Part shown: one piece after another, positions 26,122-33,605 of the stretch
Layout: each line of letters opens with the position of its first letter
Position numbering within the stretch: position 1 is the stretch's first letter
Made by a program: the position numbers and the translations under genes
The notes under the pieces: model-generated
The model's database searches: none
What the model was told of the DNA's origin: nothing
The model's input: only the letters and a program-made list of their open reading frames with translations
Source: Alkalispirochaeta sp.
Lineage (GTDB): Bacteria > Spirochaetota > Spirochaetia > DSM-27196 > Alkalispirochaetaceae
Direction: 5' to 3'
Assembly: GCA_965242725.1 (NCBI GenBank)
Contig: CBDESZ010000022.1
Span: forward strand, 77,100-141,099
Length of the DNA stretch: 64,000 nucleotides

Positions 26122-27414
26122 TCAAACTTCATCGGAAAGGCGCGGCAGCGGCGTATCCGCCGGTACCGACCGTCCCCACTCGCGGAGAACCTCCAGAATC
26201 GTCGCTGCGGCGCGTTCCATAGACCCGAGGGGCACCCATTCATAGGGACCGTGAAAGTTCAAACCTCCCGCAAACACATTGGGGGTGGGCAGACCCATTT
26301 CCGTGAGCCGCGCGCCGTCGGTACCGCCCCGTATCGGTTCCAGAACGGGCGTCACTCCGACCGACTGTATCGCCTTCTTCAATATGTCCACCATAAAGGG
26401 ATAGTCCCGCAGGGTGTCACGCATATTGAGATACTGCTGCTCCGACGTCACCGAGACACGACACCGGGGATACGCCTTTTCAATCGTTTCTGCCAGCGAC
26501 TCGATGAACGCGACCCGCCGCAACACTTCCGTCAGTTCGAAATCCCGGATAATGAACTCAATCTCCGCATGCCCATAGTCGCCCGTCACTTCCACAGGGC
26601 AGTAAAATCCAAAACGACCGTCAGTCGCCTCGGGACTTTCATTCTGGGGAACCATGGAAAGGAACTGCCCGGCGATTGTCACGGCGTTGGCCATTTTTCC
26701 CCGGGCGCTGCCGGGATGTATGACGTACCCGTCAATAGCAACGCGAACACGGTAGGCGCTGAAGCATTCCGCCTCGATGCTCCCCTCTTTTCCGCCGTCC
26801 ATGGTATAGGCAAAGCGGGCGTGAAGGGAGGGTACGTCGAGTCTGTCCACTCCCCGCCCTATTTCCTCATCGGGGGTAAATATGATTTCCAGCTCGGGAT
26901 GAGGAAATTCCGGATGATCCACAAGAAACCGGACGGCCGCCATGATCTCCGCAACCCCCGCCTTGTCGTCGGCTCCGAGAAGGGTCGTACCGTCGGCGGT
27001 GATGATCGTCTCGCCCCGGAAATCAAGGAGATCCGGGTACTCCGCGGGATCGATAGAAACACCGTTGCCGAGCTCGAGCACCGATCCGTCATAATCCACC
27101 CATACCCGGGGGGATACATTCTTTCCGCTGCTGTCCGGTGCCGTATCCATGTGTGCGAGGAAGGCCACAGCCGGTGCCGAGACCCCTTTCGTCGGGGGAA
27201 TGCGGGCGATCACGTATCCATACTCCGTAATGGTCACATCGGATAGTCCCAACTCGGTCAATTCCCGCTCCAGCATACGCGCCAGGTCCCATTGCTGCGG
27301 GGTAGAAGGCGTCGTATCACTGTGGCGTGAGCTGGTCGTATGAACGGCCACGTATCGAAGAAAACGGGCGAGCACATCCTCCCGGAGAGCATCGCGATAT
27401 TGTGTCAGATCCAT
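26122..27414 (-). CDS. pepT: Peptidase T (M20 tripeptidase)
   Basis: RFLRYV...T.S, AHMDT, LGADDKAG, FTPDEEIGRG, IRGGTDG, NFHGPYE. The true start is ATG 27414, not 28233. Confidence 0.95.
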   Translation of the reverse strand: MDLTQYRDALREDVLARFLRYVAVHTTSSRHSDTTPSTPQQWDLARMLERELTELGLSDVTITEYGYVIARIPPTKGVSAPAVAFLAHMDTAPDSSGKNVSPRVWVDYDGSVLELGNGVSIDPAEYPDLLDFRGETIITADGTTLLGADDKAGVAEIMAAVRFLVDHPEFPHPELEIIFTPDEEIGRGVDRLDVPSLHARFAYTMDGGKEGSIEAECFSAYRVRVAIDGYVIHPGSARGKMANAVTIAGQFLSMVPQNESPEATDGRFGFYCPVEVTGDYGHAEIEFIIRDFELTEVLRRVAFIESLAETIEKAYPRCRVSVTSEQQYLNMRDTLRDYPFMVDILKKAIQSVGVTPVLEPIRGGTDGARLTEMGLPTPNVFAGGLNFHGPYEWVPLGSMERAAATILEVLREWGRSVPADTPLPRLSDEV

Positions 27415-27468
27415 GACGCATCTTACCGCCATTTGCATTGTACCGACAAGTTTCCGTATATTGAGGCT

Positions 27469-28389
27469 ATGGGAATACCTCAATACCCCGACTGTGCCCC
27501 CATCGATCTTTCGATGCGGGATCAACTTCATCCGCGCCTGTCGCTCTTGCCCGACGGCGTCTCCGAGTTTACCTTTGCCGGACTCTATCTGTTCCGTGAC
27601 ACCTATAATTATCACGTCTCCCTCCTCCCGGAAGACAAGCTGCTCATCAGCGGAGAAAAGGAAGGGGCCCACTTTTTCATGCTTCCCTGCGGACTGCCCG
27701 GGGATGAGGACGTCATAGGACAGCTCTTTGACCGCTACGACTATTTGAAGGGACTGAGCGAGCGGAATGCCGACGAGGCGTGGATCACCCTTGAAAAACT
27801 GGGACTGCAGGTCAGGGAGGATCGGGACAATTTTGACTATCTCTACCTCAAGGATGACCTTGCCAACCTGCCGGGAAAGAAATTTCACAAGAAACGGAAC
27901 CACGTGAATGCCTTTGTCAACAACTATCAGTTTGACGAACAGGCGCTCAAAGAACGGCACATTCCCGACGCCATGGGAATTCTTGAAGCGTGGCAGAAGG
28001 ACAGGGAGGACCGCGCCGATTACGCCGCCGCCCGGGAAGCGCTTGAGCGGTTTCAGGAGCTTGAACTCAAAGGGTATATCGTCTACGTCGGCGACAATCC
28101 GGCGGCCTATACCGTCGGAGAACCCCTCATGAAGGGCCAGAGCTTTGTCGTTCACTTTGAAAAGGCCGTCGATGACTACCGCGGCATATACCAGTTTATC
28201 AATAAGGCCTTTGCAACGATGCTTCCAAAGCATTACAAATGGATAAACAGGGAACAGGATCTGGGGGATGAAGGTCTGCGACAGTCAAAGATGACCTACC
28301 GACCCACGGGATTCGTGAAGAAGTACCGGGTTGGCAGAAATCTCCCCGAAATGGGTGGTGATGCAGGAGAAACTCAAAAAAGCGCTTGA
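27469..28389 (+). CDS. DUF2156 / MprF C-terminal-like GNAT-fold protein
   Basis: SEFTFAGLY, DRDNFDYLY, L.GKKFHKKRNHVN.F, HFEKA, INREQDLG.EGLR.SK..Y.P. Confidence 0.85.
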   Translation: MGIPQYPDCAPIDLSMRDQLHPRLSLLPDGVSEFTFAGLYLFRDTYNYHVSLLPEDKLLISGEKEGAHFFMLPCGLPGDEDVIGQLFDRYDYLKGLSERNADEAWITLEKLGLQVREDRDNFDYLYLKDDLANLPGKKFHKKRNHVNAFVNNYQFDEQALKERHIPDAMGILEAWQKDREDRADYAAAREALERFQELELKGYIVYVGDNPAAYTVGEPLMKGQSFVVHFEKAVDDYRGIYQFINKAFATMLPKHYKWINREQDLGDEGLRQSKMTYRPTGFVKKYRVGRNLPEMGGDAGETQKSA

Positions 28390-31300
28390 CCGGGAACTTT
28401 TGTCCCGTACCGGAGACGTAATGGCATGTCTCCCGGAGCGTTATTTTTCCGTCCATAGTGAAAAGGAGATTGCCGCTCACGCCCGGGCAATAGCCGAGCT
28501 GACTCAGGAGTATCCGGTCCGGATCGTGCAGGGCGAAGGCGATACGGAAGAGGTCGGTTTTACCGTTTGCACCTGGGATGCGCCGGGTCTGTTCAGCTAC
28601 ATTTGCGGTATTCTCGGTACCCGGGGACTGAATATTCAGGCGGGGGAGGTGTTTACCGGCACCAACGGATTGGTGGTGGACACGATTTCCGGCATCCTCC
28701 CGGAGGACACCGATACTTCCCGCTGGTGCGACGCTCTGGAGCGGGAGCTGGCAACGCTCTTTGTCCCCCTCCGGATGTCGCCCCCCGACGTCGACGCGGT
28801 ACGTATCACCGTCATGGAACGGGTGGCAAAGCGCTATACAACCCTTGCTCCCGAGCGGTCCACCCCCGATGAGGGAGAGCCGCTGCTGCCGATACGCATA
28901 ACCATCGACTCCGACGGCCCCCTGACCCGCGTCTCCGTAACTTCCCAGGACACGCCGTATTTTCTCTATTCCCTTGCCAGCGCCCTCACACTTCAGGACA
29001 TGTCGATCAAGCAGGTGGCAATCGAAACGACAAACATGGAAGTACAGGACACCTTCTGGGTGGAGCACGCCCGGGGCGGTCCGGTAACCTCCGAGAGCGA
29101 TCGTCGACGCCTGCAGCTCTCCATTCTGGTGACAAAGCAGTTCACTCACGCCCTCGACCAGGCCGCCGATCCCCGGGGCGCGTTCATCAGGTTTGAGGAG
29201 CTAGTACGCAAAGTTGCCGGCGACGGCAGCGAGGAGCGGCTCCAGAAGCTTTTAGCCGATCCCTCGGCGCAGCGTGAACTGGCACGTCTCCTCGGTGCAA
29301 GCGACTTCCTCTGGGAGGATTTCATACGGCTGCAGTATGAAAGCCTCCTGCCCCTGCTTCAGCAGGACCACAACCGCCGTCCCCTGAGCACGGCGCCGGC
29401 GGAGCTGCAAAAAAAGCTTGCCAGAGAGTTTGCAGATGCCCGGACGAGGGAGGAAAAGAAGGATCGCCTCAACGCCTTCAAAGATCGGGAGGCGTATCTC
29501 ATTGACGCGGATCACATTCTGCGACGGGATACGGATTTCTTCTTTTTGAGTCACCGTCTTACCGCCCTGGCGGAGCTTGTCGTCAGGAGGGCCTACGACA
29601 TCGCCTGGGATACCCTTTGCCAGACCTACGGCACACCCCGGAGCGCCGGCGGACTTCCGGCGGATTACGCGGTGTTCGGTTTGGGCAAACTTGGCGGAAG
29701 TGCTCTCGGTTACGCATCGGATATCGAACTCATGACGATATACAGCGATCAGGGTGAGACCGATGCATCGGAACGTCCCATTTCGAACCGGGAGTTCTTT
29801 GAGCGCCTCGTCAGGGAAGTGAGCGACCTGATCGATACCAAGCGGGAGGCGATCTTTGAAATCGATATTCGCCTTCGGCCCTACGGAGACGACGGTCCCC
29901 GGGCCGTCCATATCGAGAGCTTTCTCGACTATTTCGGGCCGCTGGGAAAGGCTCACAGCGCCGAACGACTCGCCCTCATCAGGATGCGTCACATCGCCGG
30001 AGACGAGGAGCTGGGCCGTCGTATGATCGCAATCAGGGATCACCTCGTCTACGAGACGGACGCAATCGACGTAGCCGAAATTCGGGAGCTCCGGCAGCGG
30101 CAGGCAGAGGATAAGGCCGGCGGCGGTCGCCTGAACGCCAAATTCAGCGCCGGCGCGCTGGTTGACCTGGAATACAACGTTCAGCTTCTGCAGGTTCGTG
30201 AAGGCCGGGGACATCGGGATATTCGCAACCCCGGTATTCACGCCACACTGCGCGCCCTGTCCGAGCTCGGCACGATAGACCCCGATGAAGCGGAAGGTAT
30301 GGTCCGGGCATACCGCTTTTTGCGAACCCTCATCAACGGTCTGCGCATGCTCAGGGGAAATGCACAGGATCTCTTTCTTCCTCCCTTCCATACGGTGGAA
30401 GCGGCGCACCTCGCCCGGCGCATGGGGTATCGTGATCGCGTCGACCAGTCCGCGGCGGAGCAGTTGCGCGTCGATTTTGAGGTTGAGACGGCCGCGGTCA
30501 GAAGTTTCGTCGAGCGGCACCTCGGTGAAGAGGCGCTTCCGGAACTCCCCGTTGGAAATCCCGCCGATCTCGTCCTCTCAGACCGATTGAGTGAAGAGCG
30601 GAGCGCCCTCGTCCTTGAAAGCGCGGGTTTTCACAACCCTTCCCGGGGGATCGTCAACCTGCGACGTATTGCCGGCCACGGCGCGGAACGGGAGATTTTT
30701 GCCCGTCTGCTCGTTCTTGCCTGGGACTATCTCACCCGCTCCGGAGACCCCGACATGGCGCTGAACAACTGGGACCGCTTCACCGAACAGGTGACCGACC
30801 GGGCGGCATTCTTTCAGGACCTTCTTGCCCAGCCGCGACGGATCGAAATGATGATCCTCATTTTTGCGGGGAGTCAGTTTCTCAGTGACACCCTTATCAG
30901 AAACCCCGGTTTTCTCGAGTGGATAAGCGATCCCGCCGTCGTAAACGGTCGCCGCAATGCGGCCGCGATGCGGCGGGAACTTTCGGACCAGATGGGAGAG
31001 CTGACGGAACGACATGAACGGCTCGATGCGATGCGCCGCTTTCGCCGGCGGGAAATACTGCGGATCGGGACGAAGGATATCTGTCTCGCCGGAGACTTCT
31101 CGGAAGTCGTGGAAGAGCTCAGTGATCTCGCCCGGGCGATCGTATCGGCGGCGCTGGACCACATCCTGTCGGATCAACCGGTGTTGCCGGGCCGCCTCTG
31201 TATTCTCGCCTTCGGCAAGCTGGGCGGAAACGAGCTCAACTACAGCTCCGACATCGATCTCCTCGCGGTCTATGAACCGGATTCCACGATCCACGACCAG

Positions 31301-32041
31301 GAGCGCGTCGCCGCAGCGGTATTCCGCCAGCTCGTCCGTGATCTCAGCGACTTTACCGTCCAGGGCCAGGTCTATCGCGTCGACCTCCGCCTCCGTCCCT
31401 GGGGCAACGCGGGACGTCTCGTCTACGCCCGTCCTGCGGCGGTGCGCTACTACAGCTCCGAGGCGGAGCTGTGGGAGCTGCAGGCACTGATCAAGCTTTC
31501 TCCGATCGCCGGCGACATCGCCCTGGGAAGGGAATTTCTCGATGAGCTCCACCGGCCCTTCGGCAAGCGGATCACGTCGGCCGGAAGAAAAGAGGTCCTG
31601 CGGACGATTCGCCATTTGCGGGGCCGGGCGATTCAGCAGTACGAGAGTCCGAACGGCACGGATATCAAGAACGGTCAGGGCGGTATACGGGACGTGGAAT
31701 TTCTCGTGCAGGCACTGCAAATGCTCCACCACGACCTCTATCCGGAGCTCCTGACGGGCAATACCCTCCGCGCGCTGGAAACGATGGAAGAGACGGGCAT
31801 ACTCGACGGCGCGACGGTTCAGGAACTGCAGGAGGACTATCTCTTTCTGCGACGAATTGAACACTTTCTGCAGGTATATGACGACCGTCAGCTTCACTCA
31901 ATTCCACAGGAGCCGGAAGCGCAGGCAAAGCTGCGTCGTGTCGTCATGGCGTCATCGGACGAAGAGAAGACACTGGTTTCCCGTCTTTCGGATACGCTGC
32001 AGCGCGTCCGTCACCGGTACAACTCAGTCATTGGAGAGTAG
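28361..32041 (+). CDS. glnE: Glutamine synthetase adenylyltransferase/deadenylylase with N-terminal tandem ACT domains
   Basis: Two nucleotidyltransferase motifs (GKLGGSALGYASDIE, GKLGGNELNYSSDID) and two D.RLRP motifs; N-terminal DAPGLFSYICG and DTPYFLYSLA ACT domains; adjacent to glnA. Confidence 0.9.
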   Translation: MQEKLKKALDRELLSRTGDVMACLPERYFSVHSEKEIAAHARAIAELTQEYPVRIVQGEGDTEEVGFTVCTWDAPGLFSYICGILGTRGLNIQAGEVFTGTNGLVVDTISGILPEDTDTSRWCDALERELATLFVPLRMSPPDVDAVRITVMERVAKRYTTLAPERSTPDEGEPLLPIRITIDSDGPLTRVSVTSQDTPYFLYSLASALTLQDMSIKQVAIETTNMEVQDTFWVEHARGGPVTSESDRRRLQLSILVTKQFTHALDQAADPRGAFIRFEELVRKVAGDGSEERLQKLLADPSAQRELARLLGASDFLWEDFIRLQYESLLPLLQQDHNRRPLSTAPAELQKKLAREFADARTREEKKDRLNAFKDREAYLIDADHILRRDTDFFFLSHRLTALAELVVRRAYDIAWDTLCQTYGTPRSAGGLPADYAVFGLGKLGGSALGYASDIELMTIYSDQGETDASERPISNREFFERLVREVSDLIDTKREAIFEIDIRLRPYGDDGPRAVHIESFLDYFGPLGKAHSAERLALIRMRHIAGDEELGRRMIAIRDHLVYETDAIDVAEIRELRQRQAEDKAGGGRLNAKFSAGALVDLEYNVQLLQVREGRGHRDIRNPGIHATLRALSELGTIDPDEAEGMVRAYRFLRTLINGLRMLRGNAQDLFLPPFHTVEAAHLARRMGYRDRVDQSAAEQLRVDFEVETAAVRSFVERHLGEEALPELPVGNPADLVLSDRLSEERSALVLESAGFHNPSRGIVNLRRIAGHGAEREIFARLLVLAWDYLTRSGDPDMALNNWDRFTEQVTDRAAFFQDLLAQPRRIEMMILIFAGSQFLSDTLIRNPGFLEWISDPAVVNGRRNAAAMRRELSDQMGELTERHERLDAMRRFRRREILRIGTKDICLAGDFSEVVEELSDLARAIVSAALDHILSDQPVLPGRLCILAFGKLGGNELNYSSDIDLLAVYEPDSTIHDQERVAAAVFRQLVRDLSDFTVQGQVYRVDLRLRPWGNAGRLVYARPAAVRYYSSEAELWELQALIKLSPIAGDIALGREFLDELHRPFGKRITSAGRKEVLRTIRHLRGRAIQQYESPNGTDIKNGQGGIRDVEFLVQALQMLHHDLYPELLTGNTLRALETMEETGILDGATVQELQEDYLFLRRIEHFLQVYDDRQLHSIPQEPEAQAKLRRVVMASSDEEKTLVSRLSDTLQRVRHRYNSVIGE

Positions 32042-32084
32042 CGCCGGCGGCGGACCACCCGGAGGTGGACCGCCAAACCCGGCG
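32042..32084. terminator. GC-rich hairpin between convergent glnE and glnA
   Basis: GGCGGACCACC-CGGA-GGTGGACCGCC (1 mismatch) inside CGCCGG...CCGGCG; no U-tract. Confidence 0.4.
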
Positions 32085-32095
32085 ATACAACGGAA

Positions 32096-33517
32096 TCAAA
32101 TGTCGTAATAGAGGGCAAACTCGTAGGGGTGGGGCCGGAGGTCAAGGGCCATCGCCTCGTTCTCCCGTTTGTATTCAATCCACGTCGCAATGACGTCTTC
32201 GGTGAAGACATCTCCCTTCAGGAGAAACTCGTGATCCTGTTCGAGGGCGTCGAGTGCTTCTCTCAGGCTGCCCGGCGTCTTGGGTACCGCCGCCGCCTCT
32301 TCTGCGGGCATATCATAGATGTTGCGGTCCAGGGGATCACCCGGGTCGATCTTGTTCTGTATGCCGTCAATCGCTGCCATGAGCATCGCGCTGAAGCCAA
32401 GGTAGGGGTTGCTCGACGGATCGGGACAACGGAACTCAAAGCGCTTCGCTTTTTCGCTGTGGGAGTACATGGGTATACGAATTGCGGCGCTTCGGTTTCG
32501 ACTGGAGTAGGCAAGATTGACCGGTGCCTCATATCCCGGGACGAGACGCTTGTAGCTGTTGGTCGTCGGGTTGGTGAAGGCAAGTATTGCCGGCGCGTGC
32601 TTCAGGATTCCACCAATCGCATAGAGTGCCGTCTGGGAGAGACCGGCATATCCGTCTCCGTAGAACTGGTTCTTGCCGTCTTTCCAGATCGAGAGGTGGG
32701 TGTGCATTCCGCTCCCGTTGTCCATAAAGAGGGGCTTGGGCATGAACGTGACGGTCTTGTTGTGTTTCCTGGCGACGTTTTTCACGACGTACTTGTACTT
32801 GGTCATGTTGTCCGCCATCTCAAGTAGCGGAGCAAAGCGCATGTCGATTTCACACTGTCCGCCGGTGGCCACCTCATGGTGATGGGCTTCAACGTTCAGA
32901 CCGATCTCGTCCATGATCACTACCATCTCGGACCTGATATCCTGCAGTGCGTCACTGGGGGGTACGGGGAAGTATCCCTCTTTGTAGCGCGGCTTGTATC
33001 CGAGGTTGGGACCTTCGTCCTTACCTGAGTTCCATCGACCCTCGGAAGAATCGATGTAGTAGTATCCGCTGTGCTCATTCTGGTCGTACCGGATGTCGTC
33101 AAAAATGAAGAACTCCGCCTCGGGACCAATGAAGGCGGTGTCGCCGATACCGGCGCTGCGCAGATAGTTCTCCGCCTTCCTGGCGATATTACGGGGATCT
33201 CTCGTGTAGTCCTCACCGGTGATAGGATCGCCAATGTTACACGTCATGACCAGCGTCTTGATTTCCATGAAGGGATCGATAAACGCCGTCTGCGGTTGAG
33301 GTTTTACGATCATGTCCGACTCGTTGATGCTTTGCCATCCGCGAATACTTGACCCGTCAAATCCGAGACCGTCGGTAAAACTCTCTTCGTCGATCTTGCT
33401 GGCAGGAACCGAGAAGTGCTGCTGCATTCCCGGAAAGTCCATGAATCGAAAGTCGACGATCTTGACGTCCTCTTTTTTGATTAAATCGAGCACGTCTTTG
33501 GCGGTCATATCACTCAT
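32096..33517 (-). CDS. glnA: Glutamine synthetase type I (adenylylatable GSI-beta)
   Basis: [45 protein letters not shown] adenylylation Tyr; GGGAGG RBS. Confidence 0.97.
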
Positions 33518-33605
33518 CCTGTACCTCCCGTACATTTAAGTTAGCCCGGCACCACAACTCGTCATAAATGTCGGTTGAACAGGCCAAAGCTACATTTATG
33601 TGGGT

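Follow-up and report, generated by a model that had tools for sequence, protein, structure and literature searches.

Nitrogen assimilation has its textbook two-tier switch in the GlnD-PII-GlnE cascade, which has been studied in few lineages, and the central region of Escherichia coli GlnE binds PII. The subject of this work is a glnE gene carried by a 64,000 bp stretch of Alkalispirochaeta sp. DNA (GenBank assembly GCA_965242725.1, contig CBDESZ010000022.1, positions 77,100–141,099 of the forward strand; hereafter, the window). Its product resembles the E. coli enzyme (ATase; 946 amino acids, aa) in containing two nucleotidyltransferase units of the same fold. In E. coli these are an adenylyl-removing (AR) half (PDB 1v4a) and an adenylyltransferase (AT) half (PDB 3k7d); the accessible portion of a review describes a central regulatory (R) domain as linking the two halves, and PII as binding the enzyme. 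AR-R-AT is the only layout given in the accessible portions of GlnE surveys (PMC4454073 and a review).

The accessible text of a preprint (bioRxiv 10.64898/2026.09.02.748916) describes direct glutamine sensing in the AT half of E. coli and Herbaspirillum GlnE, control of Streptomyces GlnE without PII or GlnD, and control of the Rhodospirillum enzyme without uridylylated PII (PII-UMP). As in the GlnE proteins of Streptomyces coelicolor, Rhodospirillum rubrum and Herbaspirillum seropedicae, control of glutamine synthetase (GS) adenylylation by the window enzyme probably departs from the PII/PII-UMP scheme of E. coli. The window protein differs from canonical GlnE in that it does not follow the AR-central-AT order, does not lack ACT domains, and appears not to be under PII-UMP control by GlnD. 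The canonical alphaproteobacterial, gammaproteobacterial and actinobacterial GlnE proteins that we examined—a set outside which the S. coelicolor, R. rubrum and H. seropedicae proteins fall—all have the usual order and give no ACT match.

A glnE gene with the order ACT-ACT-AT-AR

The open reading frame (ORF) at window positions 28331–32041 (forward strand) is uninterrupted in the ORF listing, and encodes a GlnE variant. The N-termini of close homologues are equivalent to the ATG at 28361 (MQE...), and the gene is therefore placed at 28361–32041, with a product of 1,226 aa (residue numbers below refer to the 1,236 aa translation P0001, which begins at 28331). Pfam finds two copies of PF03710 (GlnE; 319 bits) and two of PF08335 (GlnD_UR_UTase) in this product, which contains two GlnE-type nucleotidyltransferase units, each with a helical C-terminal domain. 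The nucleotidyltransferase motifs are GKLGGSALGYASDIE (29684–29728) and GKLGGNELNYSSDID (31214–31258). The NCBIfam GlnE models score 445, below their cut-off of 487. No second glnE was found in the genome, and the nearest named relatives of the gene are Spirochaeta and Alkalispirochaeta records. The order ACT-ACT-AT-AR is confirmed in an intact gene, and since the same order is present in 31 fully read genes from genomes of the class Spirochaetia—several of them single-contig genomes—it is not an assembly artefact.

The window enzyme shares a number of features with E. coli GlnE: the marker residues that correspond to N169 and G697, the acidic triads, and a type I GS with the target tyrosine. 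It differs in that AT precedes AR, in about 270 extra N-terminal residues that make up the ACT pair, and in a Glu in place of D703.

The N-terminal module begins with a helical cap (28391–28495; this and all other glnE features lie on the forward strand), which resembles the pre-ACT segment of GlnD (YF..HS...IA.HAR) in an HHalign comparison with E. coli GlnD from residue 652 onward, in the alignment and in the helices of the predicted model. ACT domain 1 (28517–28774) and ACT domain 2 (28895–29146; D207-T-P-x-F-L and D240) follow, and in the model the final helix of the latter continues directly into the AT unit. In a set of 142 permuted proteins (not thinned, and hence including near-copies), D83 and G86 of domain 1 are conserved in 128 and 100 members, respectively, while D207, T208, L212 and D240 of domain 2 are conserved in 134, 130, 141 and 140. 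The Pfam ACT model remains below its cut-off in this region (16.5–20.3 bits against 27). Residues 12–266 are matched by the C-terminal part of the NCBIfam GlnD models (PRK05092 677–920, E 7e-25), and HHalign pairs a family profile built from 83 relatives with E. coli GlnD 652–871, pre-ACT helix included (97%, E 1e-10). The predicted model of the pair contains two ACT domains (predicted local distance difference test, pLDDT, 91.9; predicted template modelling score 0.88); folding the region from a single sequence gave no usable model (pLDDT 36). The structural neighbours of the region are themselves ACT proteins: aspartate kinase (Z 11.8, root-mean-square deviation [rmsd] 3.9, 159 residues aligned), threonine deaminase (Z 10.1), large glutamate dehydrogenase and CASTOR1. 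These results indicate that the ACT pair is real and of the GlnD type, in agreement with the earlier note on this DNA, which had placed GlnD-like tandem ACT domains at the N-terminus.

What the protein shares with GlnD is this tandem pair and the helix that precedes it (E. coli GlnD 652–871). Unlike GlnD, the window protein has catalytic units of the GlnE type, carries its ACT pair at the N-terminus, has an extra helix between the two ACT domains, and gives no HD domain match in the Pfam and genome searches. As a whole it scores 85 bits against the GlnD model TIGR01693, for which the cut-off is 519. No GlnD entry surfaced in PDB sequence or fold searches with the window protein.

The two catalytic units are unit 1 (29153–30535) and unit 2 (30986–32038), separated by a helical region (30536–30985) that was delimited by profile search and block alignment. 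The accessible part of one study gives N169 (AR) versus G697 (AT) as a class marker (PMC4454073). At this position, all 142 permuted proteins have Gly in unit 1 (G460 in the window protein), and 141 of them have Asn in unit 2 (N970). The acidic triads are D464/E466/D512 in unit 1 (142/142), where the middle acid is Glu, and D974/D976/D1018 in unit 2 (141/142). Profiles built from 13 canonical proteins only were used to class 18 permuted proteins: every first unit was assigned to AT and every second unit to AR. Four residues invariant in the AR halves of the 13 canonical proteins (N169, R324, E381 and Q385) are present in all 18 second units—in the window protein as N970, R1120, E1177 and Q1181—and in none of the 18 first units. 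A quick tree of 68 rows splits an AT side containing unit 1 from an AR side containing unit 2 (support 98 in the Shimodaira-Hasegawa-like approximate likelihood ratio test). Finally, an approximately unbiased (AU) test on 26 rows, a set that leaves out the actinobacterial proteins among others, rejects the canonical order (log-likelihood difference 116, p-AU 9.9e-81).

Several observations weigh against the AT label of unit 1. Its profile margin is narrow (193 versus 168 bits), it carries three of nine AR-typical and four of seven AT-typical residues, and it has the Glu at the position of E. coli AT D703. In BLAST comparisons it matches E. coli AR better than AT (133 versus 99 bits), and its model fits 1v4a (Z 39.8, rmsd 2.8) and 3k7d (Z 38.0, rmsd 4.5) alike. 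In addition, two actinobacterial AT halves are placed on the AR side of the 68-row tree. Unit 2 also leans towards AR in BLAST (141 versus 115 bits); because both units do so, and because unit 1 fits both halves of the E. coli enzyme, pairwise BLAST and fold comparison cannot separate AR from AT. On the strength of the trees, profiles and conserved residues, the AR label of unit 2 is firm, and the AT label of unit 1 well supported, though less so. The earlier note had called the first unit AT-like and the second AR-like, and hence the order permuted; the domain-level tree, the AU test, the profile scores and the marker residues all bear this out.

The actinobacterial proteins in question are from Tsukamurella and Nonomuraea. 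In each, the two GlnE halves form a group on the AR side of the tree, perhaps because of a separate duplication or gene conversion.

Distribution and origin of the swapped order

PF03710 was detected in 132 of 401 Spirochaetia genomes, mainly in frames of 1,200–1,350 codons, and whole glnE genes were examined from 35 of these 132. The ACT-ACT-AT-AR form is present in 31 of the 35, the AR-ACT-ACT-AT form (hereafter, the middle form) in three (G243, G264 and G389), and an ACT-less copy of canonical order in four. The ACT-less gene is a second copy in G104, G209 and G353, and is the only copy examined in G368. All four ACT-less copies belong to a single family (f48) and group with alphaproteobacterial GlnE; two of them adjoin a second glnA. 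Their placement suggests that they were likely acquired horizontally.

The design is common in Spirochaetia and is also found in other phyla. Among the best 150 of 8,299 matches in a 50%-identity library, 72 are ACT-AT-AR, 33 AR-ACT-AT, 36 ACT-AT only (a class that includes proteins cut by contig ends) and nine are fragments. Of the 120 matches listed in a search started from a distant member, 57 are permuted and 63 are middle forms. The named permuted forms among these are from Fibrobacteria, the Planctomycetes-Verrucomicrobia-Chlamydiae (PVC) group, Omnitrophica and Deltaproteobacteria, and the named middle forms are from Gimesia and Thermoanaerobaculia; an ACT-AT-only protein of 741 aa is named from Abditibacteriales. 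In the ACT-bearing family, then, the AR block lies before ACT-ACT-AT, after it, or not in the same protein. Judged from these sequences, the window GlnE is not a one-off but a member of a broad family with a stable ACT-ACT-AT unit.

Middle-form proteins (those of Gimesia maris, G. alba, a Thermoanaerobaculia metagenome-assembled genome, G243, G264 and G389) have the same three blocks as the window protein, at about 35% identity and collinear within each block, and their AT units lie on the same side of the tree as the window AT unit. They differ in that AR comes first rather than last, and in that the three spirochaete examples keep glnD, with a Tyr51-bearing PII nearby. Comparison with the G389 protein displays the block swap directly: window residues 38–731 correspond to G389 residues 557–1252, and window residues 748–1236 to 48–529. 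The helical region ahead of the window AR unit (30536–30985) is homologous to the N-terminus of the middle form, and its rear portion to E. coli residues 535–599. The profile search also shows the ACT pair abutting a helical region that in E. coli starts near residue 525–535; the pair therefore occupies the place of the front of the E. coli central regulatory region.

A tree of AT units sets all 162 ACT-linked units apart from 13 canonical ones (support 99). Within it the permuted, middle and stand-alone forms intermingle, and the permuted label changes at least seven times (a FastTree topology, unrooted, from a sample biased towards the query). A single circular permutation event, which we considered, is disfavoured by these label changes; repeated splitting and re-fusion fits them better. 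We infer that the ACT pair joined the AT unit once, and that the AR block later detached and was re-attached at either end. The present order thus likely arose by movement of AR to a position before or after a stable ACT-ACT-AT unit on more than one occasion.

GlnD, PII and the glutamine synthetase locus

No glnD was found in the genome, in which the sole strong match to the GlnD model and to E. coli GlnD is the N-terminus of the window glnE itself; genome completeness is 91.8%, which tells against taking this absence at face value. Five single-contig relatives also yielded no glnD. Class-wide, a full-length glnD was found in four of the 401 genomes, and not found in the other 397.

The genome has one clear PII gene, glnK, paired with amtB on contig C24 and adjacent to a sigma-54-type activator gene. 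In the alignment, the position of Tyr51 in E. coli GlnB is taken by Ile in its product. A second, weak PII-family match (contig C13) was set aside as a divergent protein encoded in a cation-antiporter-like cluster. PII matches were obtained in 72 of 80 genomes searched, and none in the remaining eight; 85 of the 113 matches from these 72 genomes, together with the genome's own PII, were sampled. In the group with at least 60% identity, Tyr51 is present in two of 70 proteins, and sequence conservation within this GlnK group is strong (column identity averages 80%). All four glnD-bearing genomes carry a Tyr51 PII beside glnD, and three glnD-less genomes hold divergent Tyr51 paralogues. As the genomes are kin, these glnD and PII counts are not independent of one another. 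PII-UMP, which E. coli needs to promote AR activity, cannot be formed here. The earlier note had inferred a shortcut of the GlnD-PII cascade and had proposed a check for glnD and glnB/K; no glnD was found, and the PII lacks Tyr51, which supports the lack of the GlnD step.

In G243, G264 and G389, three of the four glnD-bearing genomes, a single cluster holds glnD-glnK(Tyr51)-amtB, glnA and the middle-form glnE; the G389 cluster contains both a Tyr51 and a Tyr51-less PII.

Convergent with the window glnE lies glnA (32096–33535, reverse strand), which encodes a type I GS (TIGR00653, 682 bits, over the cut-off) that keeps the tyrosine loop NIYDMP. This neighbouring GlnA is, by sequence and position, the likely substrate of the window GlnE. 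In 35 permuted loci, glnA is present in the flank of 17, amtB-glnK in that of 10, and one or the other in 23; since the flanks span 3–6 kb, these are lower bounds. All 17 flanking glnA genes carry the tyrosine motif.

Upstream of glnA is a palindrome, CTACAT-N2-ATGTAG with one mismatch (33590–33603, sequence scan). A perfect copy lies upstream of amtB-glnK (C24:8709–8722); it is the sole perfect copy in the genome, where 0.12 are expected. Copies with up to one mismatch number seven against 4.9 expected. The palindrome also precedes glnA or amtB-glnK at eleven loci in relatives of several families, and is likely an operator shared by genes of a nitrogen regulon, to which the sigma-54-type activator encoded nearby perhaps binds.

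A number of further features of these loci were recorded. The C24:6849–10466 cluster consists of the sigma-54-type activator (GAF-like N-terminus by eye), amtB and the Tyr51-less glnK, and clusters of this type adjoin an ACT-bearing glnE and glnA in many relatives; a sigma-54-like element, unscored, was seen by eye upstream of amtB. The scan for sigma-70 promoters and terminators gave hits at chance level. A G+C-rich hairpin (32042–32085), possibly a two-way terminator, takes up the intergenic space between the convergent glnE and glnA (-30.2 kcal/mol for 32039–32100, a value with no shuffle control). At its other end, glnE is overlapped by 29 bases by a PF09924 gene (DUF2156-type, GNAT-like; 27340–28389, forward strand), which holds the same position in 10 of 35 loci. 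A second GS-family gene (C22:75703–77157) ends at about window position 58; its product is 42% identical to GlnA over 243 aa and, by eye, is without the adenylylation-loop motif.

A proposed built-in sensor and its rivals

The reading that we prefer, and to which we give a somewhat better than even chance, is that the ACT-ACT-AT-AR enzyme adenylylates the neighbouring GS with unit 1, deadenylylates it with unit 2, and has in its ACT pair a built-in glutamine sensor that replaces the GlnD-PII-UMP relay. That relay was not found in the genome, and the enzyme is therefore likely to read nitrogen status through the ACT module. According to the accessible text of one paper, GlnD requires its ACT domains for its glutamine response (reported there second-hand), and a Chlamydomonas amylase owes its activation by glutamine to a similar ACT domain (PMC11190351); homology to both supports glutamine as the probable ligand of the pair. 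Under this scheme, unit 1 would add AMP to the neighbouring GS and unit 2 would remove it. High glutamine would bind the ACT pair, turning AT on and GS off; when glutamine is low, AT would be off and the AR unit would reactivate GS. Since PII-UMP cannot be made, AR activity would either be constitutive, the situation reported in R. rubrum, or be adjusted by unmodified GlnK in response to 2-oxoglutarate and ATP/ADP.

We hold a wider version of this reading more tentatively, as a little less than an even bet: that a GlnD-free system is widespread, in which the sensor has moved from GlnD to GlnE, ACT-ACT-AT acts as a glutamine-gated off switch, a movable AR is the on switch, independent of PII-UMP, and the signal from a Tyr51-less GlnK is limited to 2-oxoglutarate and energy. 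Such a system would have one tier, and the order of its blocks would be irrelevant.

Several findings weigh against the built-in sensor. The ACT region is the least conserved part of the protein (mean identity to the window sequence 0.37, versus 0.56 and 0.45). Canonical GlnE has no ACT domain yet senses glutamine in its AT half, which means that glutamine need not bind at the ACT pair. Moreover, G243, G264 and G389 encode an ACT-bearing GlnE alongside a full glnD; an ACT pair and GlnD can thus coexist, and the module does not strictly replace GlnD. It is conceivable, if unlikely, that the enzyme and its order are as we describe them, but that the ligand of the ACT pair is a different metabolite, or that the pair mediates dimerization or docking on GS, with AT itself reading glutamine as in E. 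coli and Herbaspirillum. The varied ligands of the structural neighbours of the region fit such a role, as does the statement, in the accessible part of the Chlamydomonas work, that ACT primary sequence predicts the ligand poorly and that the conserved Asp is dispensable in AMA2 (PMC11190351). Opposed to it are the extent of the GlnD match, which spans both ACT domains and the preceding helix, the fixed attachment of the ACT module to the AT unit in all three arrangements, and the association of the module, in most of the genomes read, with the loss of both glnD and Tyr51. A very improbable alternative concerns unit 1 itself, which would act with another nucleotide or on another target (for instance as a GlnD-like modifier of PII), or the two units would work in reverse. 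In unit 1, D-I-E replaces D-L-D and the Trp of W-E-x-x-A is missing, its pairwise and fold similarities do not favour AT, and ACT domains plus a nucleotidyltransferase are the recipe for GlnD. Yet unit 1 clusters with proteobacterial AT halves and is C-terminal in the middle form, it is without all four AR-invariant residues while its acidic triad is invariant, the PII has no Tyr51 to modify, and the gene is the sole glnE found in the genome.

AmtB is the usual target of GlnK. Also weighing against the built-in sensor is the presence of amtB and the conserved, Tyr51-less glnK within about 3 kb of the permuted glnE at the 10 loci counted above: PII may have remained the main controller, with 2-oxoglutarate and ATP/ADP setting whether unmodified GlnK binds the enzyme, as in R. 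rubrum, where GlnE is governed by unmodified PII and 2-oxoglutarate, and with the ACT pair in a secondary role. The conservation of GlnK and the occurrence of PII in most genomes searched speak for this possibility, which we nevertheless rate as rather unlikely. The clustering of glnK with glnE may reflect co-regulation only, because glnK accompanies amtB and shares the upstream palindrome; eight of the 80 genomes gave no PII match; and the ACT pair replaces the front of the central region before AT. A complex prediction of a GlnK trimer with residues 690–1236, in which the ACT-AT half is outside the model, scored 0.01 and is evidence neither way. GlnD is bypassed, but, given the amtB-glnK pairs beside glnE, PII may not be. 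The earlier note had envisaged a shortcut of the whole GlnD-PII cascade, of which the GlnD part stands—no glnD, no Tyr51—and the PII part may not, in view of the glnK linkage. It also overstated direct glutamine sensing as a novelty, a property already described for the AT half of E. coli and Herbaspirillum GlnE.

A search of open-access full text, with subscription papers and database architecture records outside its scope, returned no paper on an ACT-bearing or permuted GlnE, and no functional study of the middle form. The protein described here belongs to a widespread GlnE variant that is real and, apparently, undescribed. A glnE is present in a third of the sampled Spirochaetia genomes, almost always without glnD, and the ACT-bearing design extends to Planctomycetes and several groups that have been little studied. 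Should the ACT pair indeed gate AT, a sensor module has moved between two enzymes of one pathway. The system also poses the question of how AR activity is turned on without PII-UMP. The confident, compact model of ACT-ACT-AT makes this part of the protein a practical target for the structure of a GlnD-type ACT pair with its ligand, and the natural permutants offer a way to learn if coupling of the two activities depends on the central linker present in E. coli GlnE.

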